A stretch of 64,000 bases of DNA from a virus (lineage: Duplodnaviria > Caudoviricetes), in the IMG/VR virus record IMGVR_UViG_2595698524_000001, positions 32,001 through 96,000 of that record. One strand, 5' to 3'. Position 1 is the first letter of the stretch, and the number at the start of each line of letters is the position of its first letter. The notes beneath the pieces were generated by a model. The model searched no databases. It saw only the letters and a list, made by a program, of their open reading frames with translations, and had not been told where the DNA came from. Of the stretch, positions 179 to 32,068 are shown piece by piece. The position numbers and the translations under genes are program-made.

Positions 179-190
179 GTGAGGGGCAAG

Positions 191-1891
191 ATGTTCGTCA
201 TTAACGTTATGCATACCAGCATGGGCTTTCGAATAGAAGTGCCCGTGAGGGTTATCGAATTAGCCATTTTAAAGTTCGCTGAAGATAACTTGCATGCGCC
301 CAAGATGGGGCGCGACCATGGGAGAATTACCGTCGAAAAGGGGGACGCCTATTACGTACACGTTCCTTCGATGAACTGGTTCTACTTCCACAAGGACTAC
401 TTCCATCGCATTAAGCAGATTGTTCTGAACACTGCGATTGAGTACAACAAGCAAGTGGAGGTGAAGGAACACACCTACCAACGCGGTGAGCCGTACAAGT
501 GCGAATTCGATAACTATGGATTTCAGATGGAAGTGACCGACCCTGAGTCGCGTTTCTACTATCAGAATGAAGTGGTAGAAAAAGCACTTGACCCGCTGTA
601 CCTGCAGATTATCTTTGCCATCCAGACAGGGAGAGGTAAGACAAAATCAGCACAAAAGGTCATGGTGAAACGCGGTGTTCGCACCGTATTAATCCATCGC
701 CCCACTTACGTAGCCAAGTGGAAGTTCGACTGTATCGACGATGAAACCGGTCTGCGTGTGGATGAGAAGCACGTGTACGTTGCGCAGGGAACGCAAGGTA
801 TTTATGACCTGATTGAAGACGGTCGAACCGGCAAGCTCGACAAAATGGGTATAAAGGTGGTTATCCTCCCGACGGTGTCACTGTTTAACTTCATGAAGGA
901 AGCGATTGCAACCATGGCGTCAAGCCCGGTGAACTTCGAGTCTTTCTACGACGATATCGGTGCCGGTCAGGTGGTGTACGACGAAGTGCACGAACACTTC
1001 CTGTTGGTGTACCTCAGTGGGATTTTGTTGAACCCGCCGTACTCACTGGAGATGTCTGCTACCTTGAAGCCGGGCGCTGCGAAGAAGTTTATCGCTGACC
1101 GTTATCTGGAACGTTTCCCGATGCGCTTCCGCGTCAGTGTTCCTTATATCCCAGTGGTGGATATCCGTGGCCTGTACTACAGCATTGATGACCCAAGCTT
1201 TATCAGGCGTGTGGGTCGCATGTCGCCGTATAACCACAAGTTGTTCGAGCAGCAACTTATTAAACACAAGCTTGAAGATTCGTACTTCTCGATGGTGTTT
1301 GATATCATGAAGCGGTCCTTCCTCGATAAGTATGAGCCGGGTCAAAAAGCGTTGGTATTCTTCTCCTTAGTAGAAATGTGCGTCGCGTTCACAAAGTATG
1401 TGAAGCACCGACTGCGTAACGGAGATGGGCCAAGCGGACTGACCGTGGCGAAGTACAATGCGGGGGACAGCTACGACGAGTTCATTGCTGCAGATATCGG
1501 GGTCTCGACTCCGGGGAAAGCAGGTACCGCAATTGACATACCCGGTTTGGTGGTGGCTATTGTTACCATTGCAATCGATGACCGTCAGTTGAATGAGCAG
1601 ATTGCTGGTCGTCCACGTGAAGTGACTAAGTGGGACTTAACACCAAAAGTGTTTTTCCTGCATTGCAGTGAAATGCCAAAGCACTTGCAGTATTTGGCGT
1701 CACGGCAAGAGTCGCTGAAGGAAGTAGTGAAGTCGTTCCTGACTTCATTCTCCCCTTACGTTATAAGGAAAACGCATGCTAGCTCCTCCTTCTCCGGCAG
1801 TGCCCCTACCGCCGTATCAAGGTTTAAGTCTATCAAGCCTTCTCGAAAAGGTTTTACGGGCTTACCCGGCCGTCGAGGACGCCGTCGTTAA
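191..1891 (+). CDS. Superfamily 2 (UvsW/Rad3-like) DNA helicase
   Basis: Walker A QTGRGKT, DEVH, SAT, motif VI QIAGR; ATG 191 after GAGGGG preferred to GTG 179. Confidence 0.85.
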   Translation: MFVINVMHTSMGFRIEVPVRVIELAILKFAEDNLHAPKMGRDHGRITVEKGDAYYVHVPSMNWFYFHKDYFHRIKQIVLNTAIEYNKQVEVKEHTYQRGEPYKCEFDNYGFQMEVTDPESRFYYQNEVVEKALDPLYLQIIFAIQTGRGKTKSAQKVMVKRGVRTVLIHRPTYVAKWKFDCIDDETGLRVDEKHVYVAQGTQGIYDLIEDGRTGKLDKMGIKVVILPTVSLFNFMKEAIATMASSPVNFESFYDDIGAGQVVYDEVHEHFLLVYLSGILLNPPYSLEMSATLKPGAAKKFIADRYLERFPMRFRVSVPYIPVVDIRGLYYSIDDPSFIRRVGRMSPYNHKLFEQQLIKHKLEDSYFSMVFDIMKRSFLDKYEPGQKALVFFSLVEMCVAFTKYVKHRLRNGDGPSGLTVAKYNAGDSYDEFIAADIGVSTPGKAGTAIDIPGLVVAIVTIAIDDRQLNEQIAGRPREVTKWDLTPKVFFLHCSEMPKHLQYLASRQESLKEVVKSFLTSFSPYVIRKTHASSSFSGSAPTAVSRFKSIKPSRKGFTGLPGRRGRRR

Positions 1892-2153
1892 GTTATGTGA
1901 AGACTCGGTGACTCGCCGAGCTTTCCATTACTACATGGTGACCGAGCATTACGCTGGAATGTTTATCACCCAACGCGGAAAGACGTACTACGTAACTCGT
2001 GTTAGCAGCATCCGCAATACCGCCTCGTATGAGCAGTATAGTTGGGTACTCTGGCACGATGACCAATCCGGTACGTCGGTAGACGAGAACCCGAAAGTGG
2101 CCTATCGCTTGTATTCACACAAGTGGATGGACTGGGTTACCGTTAAACATTAA
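1776..2153 (+). CDS. Hypothetical protein
   Basis: 125 aa ORF overlapping helicase 3' end, followed by hairpin and T-run. Confidence 0.55.
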   Translation: MLAPPSPAVPLPPYQGLSLSSLLEKVLRAYPAVEDAVVKLCEDSVTRRAFHYYMVTEHYAGMFITQRGKTYYVTRVSSIRNTASYEQYSWVLWHDDQSGTSVDENPKVAYRLYSHKWMDWVTVKH

Positions 2154-2860: not shown

Positions 2861-5023
2861 ATGAGTCAAGAAACTGAAAACCAAGGTCGCCCATTTATGG
2901 GTGGCCCTGCTCACCATGTGGACGAAGCACTGCCGTCCGCTGAAGACCATGGCTTCAAAAAGATTGATGAAGAGGATTACGATCCGGAAGCCGCCCGTAA
3001 ACTGTGGTTAGAAACACGTGAGCGTGAGCGCAAAGCCGCACTGGAGGCAGGGAATGGTGGTGAAAGTGGCAATAGTGGGGGGCATGCCTCTCCGACTGCG
3101 CGCGTTATCAATCCAAGCGCTCCTGCTGGCGGGCGTGCAGATAGCGAGCGAGCAGGAAGTGGAACAGGACAGGAAGTCGAGACAGCCGTTCACCGACACG
3201 TCGATCCTACCCCTGTGCAAATCCCTGTTCAGCAGCCCGTGGAACGGCAAGTTTCCACAGCACCCGCCGCACGAGCTGCATCCGAAGCAGTTCCACACGT
3301 TGACGCTGCCCCGGCACAGCCGCAGCATGCGCCGACCCAAACGCAGGAAGTGACGCATGGCATCAAGCAAGAAACCACGCAAGCGCAAGGCGCGGAAAGC
3401 GTTTTACAACGACCAGCGTCTGGCGGACAGGAACGAGGACATGTCCAACAACCTGTCTCGCCAGTCAGCCCAGCTCAACAGCCAGCTGCAGATGCTGCGC
3501 CGGCCGCAGCAGCGGATGACTCAGCTACGGACAAGACGCGTCGCATAGCGTCCCTGCTGGAATCTCCGGTACCGCGTGGTGAACGTAGCGAGTTGATGAA
3601 ACTCGATGACGATGACCCGGTTGGTATGTTGTCGGGTATGGCACTGGTCGGTGGTCTGCGTAATCTGGCGCAGTCATCCAAAAGCTTCAATGCGTTCTTC
3701 CGTACGCTGGAGCGTAATCAGGAAGGTCATCCGGTCTTCCGTTCGCCGCAAGAAGAGGATATCTACAACCGCATCCTGCAGATTATGCAGATCGCGTCCC
3801 CTTCTATGCAGAACGGTAATCAGGCTCAGTCCGAAGCTGCGCTGCGTGAAGACATCCAATGGCGTCAGGAACTCGATACCGGTTCAGATGAGAAGTTCGT
3901 CATCAAGAACCATCCGAAACAAGCGCACGGTTTGATGAAGTCTATCTACCGTCGTCAGAACTCGGGTGCGCCGGTTACGGTATTCCTACCTGCGTCGGGT
4001 TTCTTTATCACGTCGAAAGCGCCGCATGAAAACGATTTCTGCGACTACGACGTGGCGCAGACCATGGATACCAATCAGGTAGGTCTGTCGACCTTCGGTA
4101 TTCTGCTGTCCGCATCGTCTGGCCTGTATCTGAAGCACATGGTTAACTTCGCCCTGAAATTCGTCGTGGATACCACGCTCGATATCGGCGACGGTGACAT
4201 GCATCAGACGCTGTATGCGAAAATCGATGAACGTGACTACTGGCTGGTTGTCATGGCATGCACCATTGCGAAATACCCAGGCGGTATTCCGTGGCTGATG
4301 TCATGTACTGAACCGCAGTGTACGTTTGAAGAAGAGCAGAAGCTGAACATCGCCCGCTGCATTCGTTACGCGAACGGGATTCTGTCGCCGACTCAGCTGG
4401 CCATCATTAACCGCCAGCGTGAAGGTGAACCGTTAACCTTCGACCAGCAGAACGAGTATCGTCGTCAGCACGTGGTTGACCCATCCTCCAAATGGGAAGA
4501 CAACGACCTGACCTTCCGCTTTGCTCACGCGTCAATTGCTCGTTATATTGACACGTCTGAAGAGTGGGTGGCGGACATTAACCAGTCCACGACCGATGCG
4601 TTGGGTAACTATGCGACAGAGCAAGAGCGTAACAGCTACATGCGTACTGCCGCAGAGACCCGTCGTCTGACTCGTTACCTGCACTTCATCGAATCCATCA
4701 CTGCGAAAGCAGAAGGTGATGATGAGCCGTACGTTGAACGCGACCCGATTAAAATCCGTGAAGCGCTGGTTGCATTGTCTTCTGACCGTGCATTCGTTTC
4801 ACGCTTTGAAGCGGCTATCGAGAAGTTCAACGAGCGCAGTCGTCTGGCCATCTTTGGCTACATGTCCCATCGCTGTCCGCAGTGTGGTGCACAGACGGGT
4901 GAGAAAGATGGCGCGTTCCGTGGTATCGTTGAGATTTCACCGGACAGACTTTTTTTCGTGCTCTCTCGAGTGGTGTACGAGATTCAGAAACTCTTAACCG
5001 ATCAATACGAAAATATTGGTTAG
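2861..5023 (+). CDS. Putative tail/baseplate assembly chaperone with disordered N-terminus and Zn-binding Cys pairs
   Basis: About 230 aa P/Q/A-rich N-terminus; CTEPQC and CPQC motifs like T4 baseplate-hub assembly proteins; slippery T7 near the end. Confidence 0.6.
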   Translation: MSQETENQGRPFMGGPAHHVDEALPSAEDHGFKKIDEEDYDPEAARKLWLETRERERKAALEAGNGGESGNSGGHASPTARVINPSAPAGGRADSERAGSGTGQEVETAVHRHVDPTPVQIPVQQPVERQVSTAPAARAASEAVPHVDAAPAQPQHAPTQTQEVTHGIKQETTQAQGAESVLQRPASGGQERGHVQQPVSPVSPAQQPAADAAPAAAADDSATDKTRRIASLLESPVPRGERSELMKLDDDDPVGMLSGMALVGGLRNLAQSSKSFNAFFRTLERNQEGHPVFRSPQEEDIYNRILQIMQIASPSMQNGNQAQSEAALREDIQWRQELDTGSDEKFVIKNHPKQAHGLMKSIYRRQNSGAPVTVFLPASGFFITSKAPHENDFCDYDVAQTMDTNQVGLSTFGILLSASSGLYLKHMVNFALKFVVDTTLDIGDGDMHQTLYAKIDERDYWLVVMACTIAKYPGGIPWLMSCTEPQCTFEEEQKLNIARCIRYANGILSPTQLAIINRQREGEPLTFDQQNEYRRQHVVDPSSKWEDNDLTFRFAHASIARYIDTSEEWVADINQSTTDALGNYATEQERNSYMRTAAETRRLTRYLHFIESITAKAEGDDEPYVERDPIKIREALVALSSDRAFVSRFEAAIEKFNERSRLAIFGYMSHRCPQCGAQTGEKDGAFRGIVEISPDRLFFVLSRVVYEIQKLLTDQYENIG

Positions 5024-5412
5024 ACAACGTCGGCTTAAGCCATGAAACCCTGATTAACACGCTTAAGCTTGACACCACCTCTCTGTTTAAGCGTCGCGAT
5101 CATCGGGCCGTGACCTACCAAGAAGCGTTTGACGAGCTGATGGCCTCGTACGACGCCTCCTTGGAATTAGACACGGGGCGGTTTCACGTGGGGATGTCCA
5201 GTCAGGAAGACCCACTTGCTAACTCGCTGTACCAGATATGGGTGGAGACGTTCATTCGTGAGGATGTTTTCAAGTATACCGGGATGAACCTTGACCAGTT
5301 CTTAGACCAGCCGCGTTGGAAGATTGAGATGCAGTTAAAAGCTATCAAGCGTCGCCATCAGGACGAGAACGCACTGGCCACCGAAATACAGAACAGCCTA
5401 CCGAAAGACTAA
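4933..5412 (+). CDS. Downstream -1 frame ORF (annotated start GTG 5110); probable frameshift extension of 2861..5023
   Basis: Frame open from 4933 with no ATG or SD before 5110; C-terminal FKYTGMNLDQFLDQPRW resembles tail chaperone extensions. Confidence 0.65.
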   Translation, partial: DFTGQTFFRALSSGVRDSETLNRSIRKYWLDNVGLSHETLINTLKLDTTSLFKRRDHRAVTYQEAFDELMASYDASLELDTGRFHVGMSSQEDPLANSLYQIWVETFIREDVFKYTGMNLDQFLDQPRWKIEMQLKAIKRRHQDENALATEIQNSLPKD

Positions 5413-5415
5413 ACG

Positions 5416-5444
5416 GGTGCCCTTCGGGGCACCTTTCTTTTTTT
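5416..5444 (+). terminator. Intrinsic terminator
   Basis: GGTGCCC-TTCG-GGGCACC plus T-run. Confidence 0.85.
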
Positions 5445-5483
5445 GTCGCAATCGTATGTATCCACCATTAGGACCTTACAGTC

Positions 5484-13951: not shown

Positions 13952-16876
13952 TTATTTTGTTTGGTCGTGACGGTTGTAGCTCAGCACCACATCGTCCTTC
14001 AGACCGATACTGCCATCCGGTTCGATTTCCAGTTTCTTACCAAGCGTCGCACGTGCAGCAGGACTGAGTACCGTAAAGATACGCATGTCTTTGTCCACAC
14101 CCATCCCTTCCATCTCCGCAGAGATAATCGAACCTTGCAGCGCGGTTTTCAATGCTTCGGTGATGTCGGAGGTGGATACCGTTTGGTTCGATGCCAGCCA
14201 GTCGGTAATCACCAGACGGGTTTGCTCGCGGATTGCCTTAATCAGGTCAGAGTTCTGACGGTTAGACGCGGTCAGGTAGTAGTTAATGCTGAAGCGATTC
14301 TCGGCTTTAATCGGTGCCACAGTACCGTCGCCCAGACGAGCGTCGATATAACCCATGGTCGTTTGCGGCACGAAGTACCCGGTGGTACGTTCAAGCAGCT
14401 CGCTTTGAATCTTCGGCAATACTTCCGTCACGGTCTCAACGACAAAGTCTGTTACCTTATCGCGGTACGCCCGCACCTCTTTCGTGGTGGAGAACAGGTA
14501 ACGTGCGTCAAACACACCCATCTCACAGCGGAAGCGAACTTTACGCGGCTCAGCAATGATGGAGTTCCCTTGCGGGTCTTTCACCAGTTCGCCGGCTTTG
14601 TATTTCACTTTCTGTTTACCAGTCAGCTCGTCAATAACCGGGTCACCTTTACGGTGTAGGTATTGGAAGACAATCGGCGGGTCTTGTGTTTCGTCGATGG
14701 TGTATTTCGGCACACCACGCTCGTTACGGTCATAGACATCGTACTCCCATGTCGCCAGCACGTCTTGCGTGTAACGCAGGTAGTTAATCGAGTCAGTGAC
14801 TGGACGAGACTTACACCAGTACGCAGACAGGGATTTACCCAGTACCAGCTCCAGCGATTCATGGGTAATACCAATCGCGTCACGAGAAGGCGGGGTAATG
14901 TAAGTGTCCAGCGTTGCGCGTTCGTAATCCCGCGGGAAGTAGTTCGAGCAACCGTAGAACACGCTCATATCCACCGTCAGTGCCATCGGTAGCATTAACG
15001 TGTTTTCACCGACGTTGAAATTAGTCATAATCATTTCGTGATTACGGTCAACGTCAAGGTTGGTTTTCAGTTCAAACTCGAACACACGCTCATCATCTAA
15101 GTAACCGACCAGTTTACCGTTGACATACGCACGGTCTGTCCCGTACCCACGCGGGGTAAAGGAAATCTGTGCCCAGCACTGGTCATCCGCTAACGCTTTG
15201 TACGCTTCTGAGGAACGAGTCACCACACGCAGTTTGTACCCTTCTTCCGTACGCACCACCTCGTAGTTCTCGGTTACCACCTGCAGTTCCGTTGTCGGGT
15301 TGGTCGACATAAAGCGCTTCGACTCAATCGCTGGTTTTGCCAGATGGTAAACACGGACACTTAACGCGTCGTTGTTTCGGTCAACCACGTAATGGAACGG
15401 CGTGTAGTAGTAACTCGCTGCGTTAGCTGCGGCCACCAAATCACGGCTGGTCATAAAACGCTGACCTTCCGTCATCGCAGGGTCAACATACAACCCGGTA
15501 CCGTCTGACTTATAAATAGTCTCCGGCAGGATGGTTGCGCGGTTACCATTGAATCGCACTGTCGAAAGGGCTTCCAGCTCTTCCCACGTAAAGTACAGTG
15601 GGGCTGCTAACGTACCAATCGGCGAACTGACTTCTTTCAGTGTGGACTCCGGCATCGGCGATGACAAGTGATACGTCCGCGAGGTAACGTAGTCAATTGG
15701 CTTGGTCAGGCTGAGACCGTACATCGTGTCGACAGTTGAACGCAGTTGTGCTTCACTGATAGGGGCCTTACGCGCACCAATCGAGTTATCGATAACGCGA
15801 GCACGGAACTCTTCCAGCGTCAACGGGTTACGCCCACCGACAGTCGTCGCCTGTGAAATCACACGACGCACTGAGAGCGATTTAAACGGGTTGGAGTAGT
15901 TCTCGTCCGTCTCTTCGTTCAAGTCCGCCATGTACATCTGGAAGTCGTCAGCAGGATAGTTGCTGAGGTCAATCGACAACGGCCCCAATGTGGTATACAC
16001 GTCAATGCGCACATCGCCGGTCACTTGCCCACTATTGATGTACACTTCTGGAATCTTCACCGAGAGGACATTCGACCCCAGTTCCATGACCGCGGTAGGA
16101 ACAGATGGGTCATAGACTTCTTTCGAGAAAGTCTGTGCCAGCTCTTTCCATTTATTCCCGGTTGCGGTGTTACGCATCCACGCACGAGCATAGAAGAACT
16201 TGTTGTTGAACGGGAAGGTACGCTTCCAGCCGGTGTCCGGCAAAATCACATCGGTCGCAGTCGAGATAGCATACTGCATCATCGGGATTTTGATACGCAG
16301 CAAGTTGACACCGCTGTCGGCCGTCGTGACCATCCAGTCCAAGGCGTTGGTGTCAACCTCTTTTACTGGGTTGGCCGGTTCTGTGACCCACAGCACTTCG
16401 AAAGAGTCAAACGGCAGCACCTGAATCTCGATAGCGTACTGTAATGTGAACGTGTAGCCCGCCACTTTAACGTACGAGTCACGAGGAATAATGATACGAC
16501 GAATCCCTTGTGTCTCCAGCGGCATCGCACGGGTACGTAAGGAGTCAACGTCCACGTAAAGTAGCATGTGCGTGGTAGAAGGCTGGGCAAAGATGTCCAC
16601 AGCATCGCGGTCGGACATGTGGCGGTACAAGTCTTCCCACGACGTTGCCATCGATGCGTACATCTTCGGCAGTAACTGACGCATACCTTCAATCGTCGAG
16701 TGGCTCAGCATCACACCCATCTCGGCAATGAATGCAACCGGGTCAGTTGGGTCGGCCAACGTCATTCCCGGTTTAGCAACGGCCTGACGCAGGGTGTTCA
16801 GCGACAACGTTTGCATTAAAGCGGGGTTGTGTGCCACGGTGAGCACTTTACCAGAGAGGTCCTGAATTGTTTCCAT
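13952..16876 (-). CDS. Large virion structural protein, probable baseplate wedge (phiKZ gp87/SPN3US gp48 position)
   Basis: 974 aa from ATG 16876 (TAATG coupling); GGRNPLTLEEFRAR resembles baseplate J/gp6 motif. Confidence 0.7.
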   Translation of the reverse strand: METIQDLSGKVLTVAHNPALMQTLSLNTLRQAVAKPGMTLADPTDPVAFIAEMGVMLSHSTIEGMRQLLPKMYASMATSWEDLYRHMSDRDAVDIFAQPSTTHMLLYVDVDSLRTRAMPLETQGIRRIIIPRDSYVKVAGYTFTLQYAIEIQVLPFDSFEVLWVTEPANPVKEVDTNALDWMVTTADSGVNLLRIKIPMMQYAISTATDVILPDTGWKRTFPFNNKFFYARAWMRNTATGNKWKELAQTFSKEVYDPSVPTAVMELGSNVLSVKIPEVYINSGQVTGDVRIDVYTTLGPLSIDLSNYPADDFQMYMADLNEETDENYSNPFKSLSVRRVISQATTVGGRNPLTLEEFRARVIDNSIGARKAPISEAQLRSTVDTMYGLSLTKPIDYVTSRTYHLSSPMPESTLKEVSSPIGTLAAPLYFTWEELEALSTVRFNGNRATILPETIYKSDGTGLYVDPAMTEGQRFMTSRDLVAAANAASYYYTPFHYVVDRNNDALSVRVYHLAKPAIESKRFMSTNPTTELQVVTENYEVVRTEEGYKLRVVTRSSEAYKALADDQCWAQISFTPRGYGTDRAYVNGKLVGYLDDERVFEFELKTNLDVDRNHEMIMTNFNVGENTLMLPMALTVDMSVFYGCSNYFPRDYERATLDTYITPPSRDAIGITHESLELVLGKSLSAYWCKSRPVTDSINYLRYTQDVLATWEYDVYDRNERGVPKYTIDETQDPPIVFQYLHRKGDPVIDELTGKQKVKYKAGELVKDPQGNSIIAEPRKVRFRCEMGVFDARYLFSTTKEVRAYRDKVTDFVVETVTEVLPKIQSELLERTTGYFVPQTTMGYIDARLGDGTVAPIKAENRFSINYYLTASNRQNSDLIKAIREQTRLVITDWLASNQTVSTSDITEALKTALQGSIISAEMEGMGVDKDMRIFTVLSPAARATLGKKLEIEPDGSIGLKDDVVLSYNRHDQTK

Positions 16877-31930: not shown

Positions 31931-32068
31931 ATGAAAGCTTACTTCAATACTCGCGTTCTGGCTGTTTTCATCATCGCAACCCTGCTGGGTACTCTGGGTG
32001 CCAGCGTGGTTAAAGGCTACGAGCAGTGCCGTGCTAATGGCCATAGCAGCATGACCTGCAACCGTTAA
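31931..32068 (+). CDS. 45-aa single-TM protein with two C-terminal Cys (not in ORF track)
   Basis: TAAGGA SD; MKAYFNTRVLAVFIIATLLGTLGASVVKGYEQCRANGHSSMTCNR*. Confidence 0.7.
   Translation: MKAYFNTRVLAVFIIATLLGTLGASVVKGYEQCRANGHSSMTCNR

Follow-up and report, generated by a model that had tools for sequence, protein, structure and literature searches.

In the phage gene pairs lambda G/GT and P2 E/E', as is proposed for the locus described here, a −1 slip on a slippery heptamer near the 3' end of an upstream open reading frame (ORF) gives rise to a short protein and a C-terminally extended form of it, a layout that stays conserved across a phage group while the sequences diverge. The upstream proteins of these tail assembly chaperones (TACs) comprise about 100–150 amino acids (aa), and the lambda G-T site is not known to be equipped with a strong stimulator. 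The E. coli dnaX gene (tau/gamma) and the orfAB genes of the IS3 family are further cases in which one gene yields two isoforms that share their N-terminus, using a homopolymeric X XXY YYZ heptamer, A AAA AAG; the isoform ratio is set by the site, and the stimulators are an upstream Shine-Dalgarno (SD)-like element and a downstream hairpin or pseudoknot. Here we analyze a window of 64,000 nucleotides (nt), positions 32,001 to 96,000 of the 223,989-base virus record IMGVR_UViG_2595698524_000001, in which a 720-aa gene assigned to the phiKZ gp77 family carries the heptamer T TTT TTC close to its 3' end and is overlapped by a small ORF in the −1 frame. Our comparison of related phage loci suggests that a programmed −1 ribosomal frameshift at T TTT TTC probably joins the 720-aa protein to this downstream ORF. 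The mechanism as such is well known; its place in the gp77 family, and family-wide, would be new. No report of recoding in nucleus-forming jumbo phages was found in the full-text literature searched, subscription journals and supplements being outside its scope; literature matches for 'gp77' were discarded because they referred to the gene numbering of other phages.

Reading-frame layout at the slip site

The zero-frame ORF extends from 2861 to 5023 (2861..5023; positions are those of the window, and this and all further features of the locus lie on its + strand). Its T run occupies positions 4950–4956 and is followed by a C at 4957, with the zero-frame codons CTT (4949–51), TTT (4952–54) and TTC (4955–57) placing the slippery heptamer T TTT TTC (4951..4957), the proposed shift site, in X XXY YYZ register. 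The heptamer encodes Phe698-Phe699, and the zero-frame stop codon TAG (5021–5023) comes 22 codons later. Upstream, a TGA (4930..4932) shuts the −1 frame and sets the 5' limit for a productive shift; from 4933 onward this frame is open for 159 codons up to the TAA at 5410–5412. The first ATG, GTG or TTG within it is the GTG at 5110 (5110..5112), which is not conserved (GTA in EarlPhillipIV and pEa_SNUABM_38) and is preceded, on inspection of the 20 nt before it by eye, by no SD motif of the GGAG/AGGA type. The −1 frame extension (4957..5412; 151 codons plus stop, PHROG 7580) thus begins with a dual-coding overlap (4958..5023), where the zero-frame tail reads VLSRVVYEIQKLLTDQYENIG* and the −1 frame RALSSGVRDSETLNRSIRKYW, and goes on with a stretch devoid of in-frame ATG, GTG or TTG (5024..5109; …LDNVGLSHETLINTLKLDTTSLFKRRDHRA), which bears a −1 coding signature, as detailed below, and counts as 'intergenic' in the annotation of relatives. 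On re-reading the window, all coordinates given in the original prediction, which had been made from the letters of the window, proved correct for the ORF, the heptamer, the TGA, the open −1 frame and the GTG at 5110, and the two products it had foreseen, a 720-aa short form and a fusion of about 850 aa, come out at 720 and 699 + 151 = 850 aa.

According to the proposed mechanism, ribosomes translating the gp77-family gene 2861..5023 would arrive at CTT TTT TTC, where some would move back by one base on the U-run as their Phe-tRNAs pair anew with U UUU UU. From 4957 onward, these ribosomes would read the −1 frame until the stop codon at 5410–5412. The 720-aa isoform would end in the zero-frame helix ...FFVLSRVVYEIQKLLTDQYENIG, while the isoform of about 850 aa would continue from the shared 699 residues into a helical extension of 151 residues (RALSSGVRDSE...SLPKD), of which the portion encoded by the −1 frame between 4957 and 5109 includes the tryptic peptides ALSSGVR, DSETLNR, YWLDNVGLSHETLINTLK and LDTTSLFK. 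If so, the small gene annotated in relatives (SPN3US gp40, 201phi2-1 gp135, PhiPA3 gp073, PHIKZ076.4) would mainly or wholly represent the C-terminus of the long isoform. That the shift takes place on the ribosome, how efficiently it does so and that both isoforms are needed are points that we infer.

Conservation of the layout and of the heptamer

A run of seven T residues by itself is not beyond chance: TTTTTTT occurs 21 times on the two strands of the window, against 15.5 +/- 5.6 expected. What is beyond chance is that the family as a whole has kept the run, the register in which it stands and the −1 layout. We fetched 29 related phage loci (T4 separately) and analyzed their junctions by script; the loci were hand-picked from 209 and 62 tblastn-matched records of a phage collection other than IMG/VR, rather than sampled at random. 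In 28/28 two-ORF chimallivirus loci, which represent about 19 genera or lineages (among them phiKZ, PhiPA3, 201phi2-1, SPN3US, Agricanvirus and a Bacillus phage), the upstream gene is overlapped by the small downstream ORF, always in the −1 frame. These 28 comprise 15 two-ORF loci of a first set of 16 (window included), 6 further lineages and 7 close relatives. In the first set, the −1 relation and an overlap of 55–259 nt were seen in 15/15 loci and the T-run heptamer in register in 13/15; in the 6 further lineages the −1 frame was kept in all and the heptamer in 4, and the 7 close relatives all have T7 plus C in register. Taken together, a T-run heptamer in register (T TTT TTC, T TTT TTT or T TTT TTA) is found in 24 of the 28 loci. 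It is T TTT TTC throughout the 13 genomes of the SPN3US / Machinavirus / Wellingtonvirus / Erskinevirus / Derbicusvirus group. The zero-frame tail following Phe-Phe varies from 6 to 45 codons, and tail and gap lengths differ widely between lineages; the region must therefore have undergone many insertions and deletions while the frame relation at the T run persisted. The conserved heptamer and open −1 frame in homologs, which the original prediction had proposed to look for, were thus both encountered.

A homopolymer run could also act at the level of RNA synthesis, with phage or host RNA polymerase adding one U on the T7/T8 run, which would give the same fusion of about 850 aa. The run is indeed present in every lineage (mostly as T7, as T8 in Deimos-Minion, AH06, RSL2 and LucasX), no ribosomal stimulator was found at the site, and chimalliviruses use their own multisubunit polymerases, the subunit genes of which adjoin the locus. 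The layout, however, is kept in loci with only T6 (3 loci) or T5 (1 locus). Bacterial RNA polymerases are not known to slip appreciably on runs shorter than about 8–9, and for this reason the T6 and T5 variants are better compatible with a ribosomal P-site or tandem slip. Contigs of three RNA-labelled libraries show T7 as well, yet this is no real test of slippage, since a 224-kb contig among them probably derives from DNA and contigs drop minority variants. On balance, we regard transcriptional slippage as an unlikely source of the fusion.

Coding signature of the start-less stretch

In tblastn searches with the −1 ORF product, alignments began at its residues 2–4 in 62 records, across two annotated genes. 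The first in-frame ATG, GTG or TTG is located 14, 28, 33, 37, 39, 39, 53, 62, 62, 63, 63, 63 and 70 codons past the slip site in the 13 genomes of the group defined above, i.e., at least 62 codons in 6 of them, and yet the pattern FFRA[LI]S[SC]GVR...IR[KR]YW[LI]D...KLDTTSLFK.R...ITYQEAH is kept throughout. Between the zero-frame stop and 5110, mean pairwise differences among these genomes amount to 0.283/0.201/0.576 at positions 1/2/3 of the −1 codons, compared with 0.418/0.283/0.606 in the undisputed downstream part. By this measure, the start-less stretch is evolving as −1-frame coding sequence, with a pattern matching that of the downstream part. In line with this, both of the two substitutions that distinguish near-identical strains in 5024–5109 (5025 C>T, 5055 T>C) fall on third positions of the −1 frame. 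In the overlap, the values are 0.280/0.125/0.260; such flattened variability is the expected pattern where both frames are read. At the amino acid level, mean pairwise identity in the overlap 4958–5023 reaches 0.65 when the zero frame is translated and 0.71 for the −1 frame, relative to 0.73 in the 24 codons upstream, and the zero-frame stop is located at +71 nt in 13/13 genomes; from these identities and the constant position of the stop, both tails look selected. The overlap is 100% identical at the nucleotide level in four Derbicusvirus-like genomes.

The same signature extends to distant lineages. The 91 start-less −1 codons of phiKZ match the −1 ORF of PhiPA3 (E 5e-14, 39% identity), beginning at the slip site. 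In the Bacillus phage AgentSmith, a start-less stretch of 94 codons gives a match to Deimos-Minion (E 4e-5). In the RefSeq entry of phiKZ, a 219-nt gap separates PHIKZ077 from PHIKZ076.4 (3689–3906 of the phiKZ locus). Over its full length this gap can be read in the −1 frame, with conservation relative to PhiPA3; PHIKZ076.4 therefore seems to be annotated far too short. The original prediction had named a lack of protein-level conservation across 4957–5110 as a finding that would speak against it; the opposite is the case. Along with the kept heptamer and the open −1 frame, the conservation of this stretch lends support, at the level of sequence, to the predicted −1 shift at T TTT TTC.

These data also bear on the notion that no recoding takes place and that the small ORF is a separate gene with a non-canonical or lineage-specific start, possibly reached by re-initiation, the T run being kept merely for its Phe-Phe dipeptide. 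Two genes are annotated in 28/28 two-ORF records examined, SEGD1 alone having one fused ORF; several lineages offer an ATG, GTG or TTG within the first 40 codons past the slip site, and conservation of the −1 frame in the overlap could partly stem from zero-frame constraint. This explanation, however, has to cope with the 6 of 13 close genomes that lack a start for 62–70 codons although the stretch is conserved and varies at third positions, with the 91 and 94 conserved start-less codons of phiKZ and AgentSmith, and with conservation that extends right to the slip site. Constraint on Phe-Phe does not account for the run either: the preceding codon is CTT, GTT, ACT, GGT, ATT or AGT, so that the amino acid differs while the final base before TTT TTT is T, and Phe-Phe is encoded as TTC TTC in none of the 28 loci. 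We therefore consider a separate gene without recoding to be quite unlikely. Where a lineage does have a start (the ATG at codon 39 of SPN3US is an example), an additional, independently initiated small protein may be made, but such a protein cannot explain the start-less genomes.

Sequencing errors and natural fusions

A homopolymer error or a recent frameshift mutation could, in principle, have split a single 850-aa gene. Two sequences might be taken to hint at this. In SEGD1, a conspecific of SPN3US, the annotation shows just one ORF, a fusion of 795 aa, and one metagenomic fragment is fused as well. SEGD1 nevertheless retains an unchanged T7; its fusion is caused by a garbled block of about 20 nt plus one extra base just upstream of T7 (2980–3012 of the SEGD1 locus, as aligned with SPN3US), which is probably an assembly error, although a natural fusion variant is possible. 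The metagenomic fragment was one of two exceptions among 28 matches that the −1 ORF product obtained against 1.84 billion representative proteins, all others being small separate ORFs: in this 312-aa fused fragment, the frame breaks upstream of a cysteine pair, the zinc-ribbon cysteines. The second exception, a 165-aa protein, is made up of blocks of about 20 aa of the SPN3US −1 ORF with the order of the blocks reversed, and resembles a tiled sequence, scrambled or synthetic, within a public assembly. Longer proteins were not found in a word-based search, which is weak evidence. From these searches, clean in-frame fusions seem not to exist, and their apparent absence would fit a need for both forms. 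Moreover, T7 is free of insertions or deletions in contigs of 4 independent public runs and in 13/13 close genomes from different sequencing groups, and both the length and the sequence of the zero-frame tail are conserved. An artefact or gene decay is thus highly improbable.

As an observation apart, window positions 4600–5450 occur in near-identical form in 20 public runs from 14 studies on sources as diverse as microbial mat, wastewater, plant, food, marine plankton and whole organisms; some of these runs are RNA-labelled, one of them with the 224-kb contig mentioned above. The phage is either very widespread or a laboratory or reagent contaminant.

Points that weigh against a ribosomal frameshift

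Several observations run counter to the proposed ribosomal frameshift. The 28 loci share descent, so that the counts do not represent 28 independent events. The heptamer is imperfect in 4/28 loci, namely G TTT TTT in PhiPA3 and FLC9, A TTT TTT in Psa21 and C TTT TTA in pVp-JHP1101 (run length T6 in three of them and T5 in one). Possible independent starts exist: the ATG of SPN3US is situated 39 codons past the slip site, and an ATG in Deimos-Minion and a GTG in RSL2 lie upstream of the T run. Furthermore, in measurements made in E. coli, U UUU UUC is not known to rank with the heptamers that shift most efficiently.

A stimulatory RNA structure of significance was not found either. A weak 5-bp hairpin, TCTCG (4964–4968) pairing with CGAGA (4978–4982) across a 9-nt loop (4964..4982), starts 6 nt past the heptamer, but the RNA downstream of the heptamer folds no better than shuffled sequences (z = 0.29 and 0.16; pseudoknots were outside this test). 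The stem is intact in 8 of 11 aligned genomes and broken in 3 (consensus energy −4.46 kcal/mol), and no compensatory change was detected in the 11-genome alignment. Covariation could hardly show up here, as the region is dual-coding and almost invariant. The original prediction had singled out this hairpin, and its arms are indeed present at the spacing given; any role of it as a stimulator is putative. No SD-like element was seen by eye at a suitable distance upstream of the heptamer. The AGGG directly preceding the T run in SPN3US-like genomes was considered as an SD-like stimulator and rejected, as it is only 0–2 nt away and absent from the window.

Weighing these points against the conserved register, the open −1 frame and the coding signature of the start-less stretch, we still favor a programmed −1 ribosomal frameshift as the probable explanation.

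Gene family and neighborhood

At the DNA level, the locus is 77–81% identical to the Erwinia jumbo phages EarlPhillipIV, Derbicus, pEa_SNUABM_38 and Phobos (genus Derbicusvirus). The 720-aa protein matches PHROG 8054 (E 1.5e-290) and also PHROG 4585; PHROGs 8054/4585 and PHROG 7580 are all of unknown function. Pfam gave no match for the 720-aa protein or the −1 ORF product, and NCBIfam no meaningful one. A tblastn search with the conserved C-terminal 474 residues matched 209 phage records, including PHIKZ077, PhiPA3 gene 074, the 201phi2-1 locus (annotated gp136) and SPN3US, and also phages of Serratia, Ralstonia, Aeromonas, Vibrio, Burkholderia, Xanthomonas and Bacillus. By homology, the upstream protein is thus a member of the phiKZ gp77 / PhiPA3 gp074 / 201phi2-1 gp136 / SPN3US gp39 family, which bears out the original assignment of the DNA to a phiKZ-like phage, and from the 209 records matched, the gene is widely conserved in phiKZ-like, nucleus-forming phages.

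The upstream ORF, 720 aa in the window, ranges from 476 to 720 aa in relatives. Its N-terminal part of about 245 aa is of low complexity and rich in Pro, Ala and Gln, and the conserved domain covers residues ~247–720. The segment encoding residues 1–245 (window 2861–3595) varies in length between lineages and draws spurious weak matches, such as to the linker of DNA polymerase III gamma/tau or, in the Aeromonas phage LAh10, a 'ZipA-like' annotation. Two cysteine pairs, C482/C487 and C672/C675, are nearly invariant, which suggests a structural zinc site; in the alignment, the Ralstonia phage RSL2 appears to lack all four cysteines.

Neighboring genes encode a helicase, proteins of unknown function and a virion RNA-polymerase subunit, and no tail genes are among them. 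A gp78-like gene upstream and a helicase nearby were seen in those loci that were checked, i.e., phiKZ, PhiPA3, 201phi2-1, SPN3US and the Derbicusvirus group. Directly 3' of the −1 ORF stop codon, an intrinsic-terminator-like hairpin of 8 pairs (6 of them G-C) is followed by a T run (5415..5444). Further upstream in the window, the helicase ORF (179..1891) and the next ORF (1776..2153; 125 aa, PHROG 9835) overlap by 116 nt in a +1 relation. The same 116-nt overlap is present in EarlPhillipIV (gp38/gp39), and Phobos gp39 is annotated from directly after the helicase stop; this may reflect a mis-called start or a second overlap.

Structure models and possible role

The AlphaFold2 (AF2) model of residues 247–720 is confident, with a predicted local distance difference test (pLDDT) score of 81.9 and a predicted template-modelling score (pTM) of 0.83. 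The slip site (model residues 452–453) falls at the start of the C-terminal helix (448–473), so that a shift would swap this helix for the 151-residue helical extension. The extension itself was modelled as all-helical (pLDDT 80.3, pTM 0.47). Searches of the PDB by sequence with family profiles gave nothing for the core and one chance-level match (E 0.54) for the extension; Foldseek against the PDB yielded nothing at E<=0.001 for either of them, and the VIA wide fold search a best Z of 4.5, which is at noise level. As no solved structure was matched, the protein appears to be absent from the virion structures in the PDB copy searched.

The original prediction had likened the upstream protein to T4 hub-assembly proteins, and this idea finds weak backing in predicted folds. 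Beyond the own family, Foldseek against BFVD returned weak matches to models of about 250 aa designated 'baseplate hub assembly protein, T4-like' (E 1e-4 to 5e-2, TM score by target 0.43–0.52), and an ESM Atlas cluster, with PF12322 on 24% of its members, scored 0.90, a value of low recognition (22 matches for that family set). Some GenBank annotations of homologs also read 'T4 gp26 like', and T4 gene 26 is the only characterized gene with any likeness to the gp77 family. At the sequence level, no such likeness emerged: the PF12322 profile hidden Markov model matched 0/18 family members at E<=10 and nothing in the phage's own genome, the T4 gp26 control scoring 8.8e-64, and hhalign against T4 gp26 gave a probability of 24% over 18 columns. 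No solved gp26 structure turned up in the fold searches.

Churi gp256, a homolog of phiKZ gp077 and PhiPA3 gp074, is reported to be a non-structural protein that two proteomic experiments revealed 15 min after infection, and its overexpression was not toxic (PMC11849849). Our best guess, made with low confidence, is that the gp77-family protein might be a non-virion assembly or scaffolding factor distantly resembling T4 gp26.

Comparison with known systems

phiKZ, PhiPA3, 201phi2-1 and SPN3US are the model systems of phage-nucleus biology, and their gene lists serve core-genome, essentiality and proteomic work. If frameshifting takes place as proposed, a widely conserved gene of these phages would have an unannotated second product with some 130–200 extra residues, a small 'hypothetical gene' would be mis-annotated with arbitrary starts in 28/28 two-ORF records, and the 219-nt gap of phiKZ would be conserved coding sequence. 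The T run also offers a handle on the function of a protein family for which there is no solved structure.

How, then, does the locus compare with the systems outlined at the outset? The original prediction had labelled it a tail-chaperone pair of the G/GT type, and although the proposed slip near the 3' end would be shared with lambda G/GT and P2 E/E', this label is not supported. The upstream protein of lambda-type TACs is small, whereas the gp77-family ORF is several times longer; the TAC gene pair lies between the major tail or tube gene and the tape measure gene, whereas the present one lies between helicase and virion-RNA-polymerase subunit genes. Pfam, PHROG and NCBIfam provided no match to a TAC family, the HK97 TAC reached only Z 3.4 at rank 32, within noise, and the Churi homolog is described as non-structural. 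With dnaX and IS3-family orfAB, our locus has the homopolymeric X XXY YYZ heptamer in common, but the run is one of A there and of U here. These two systems have defined stimulators, while none was found here, and the shifted frame of dnaX ends almost at once, whereas the shift considered here would add 151 residues. T4 gene 26 (baseplate hub assembly, PF12322; T4 locus 15803–16429, minus strand) also has two annotated products, gp26 and 26'; 26' comes from an internal in-frame start, in contrast to the frameshift proposed here, and gp26 is 208 aa long as opposed to 720 aa.

One may go a step further and envisage an ancient recoding event that defines the Chimalliviridae, from phiKZ to a Bacillus phage, with gp77 as an enlarged T4-gp26-like factor that has independently evolved a G/GT-like logic of fixed ratios. 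We put this forward as a doubtful speculation. Were it true, gp77 and its extension would be the long-missing functional counterpart, in these phages, of the frameshifted tail or baseplate chaperone, and the T run could allow ribosome-binding phage factors or phage RNA polymerases to tune the isoform ratio during infection. As for the −1 frameshift itself, it would carry the rule by which tailed phages set the ratio of two forms of one protein over to a new protein family, in a phage group whose translation and transcription are unusual.

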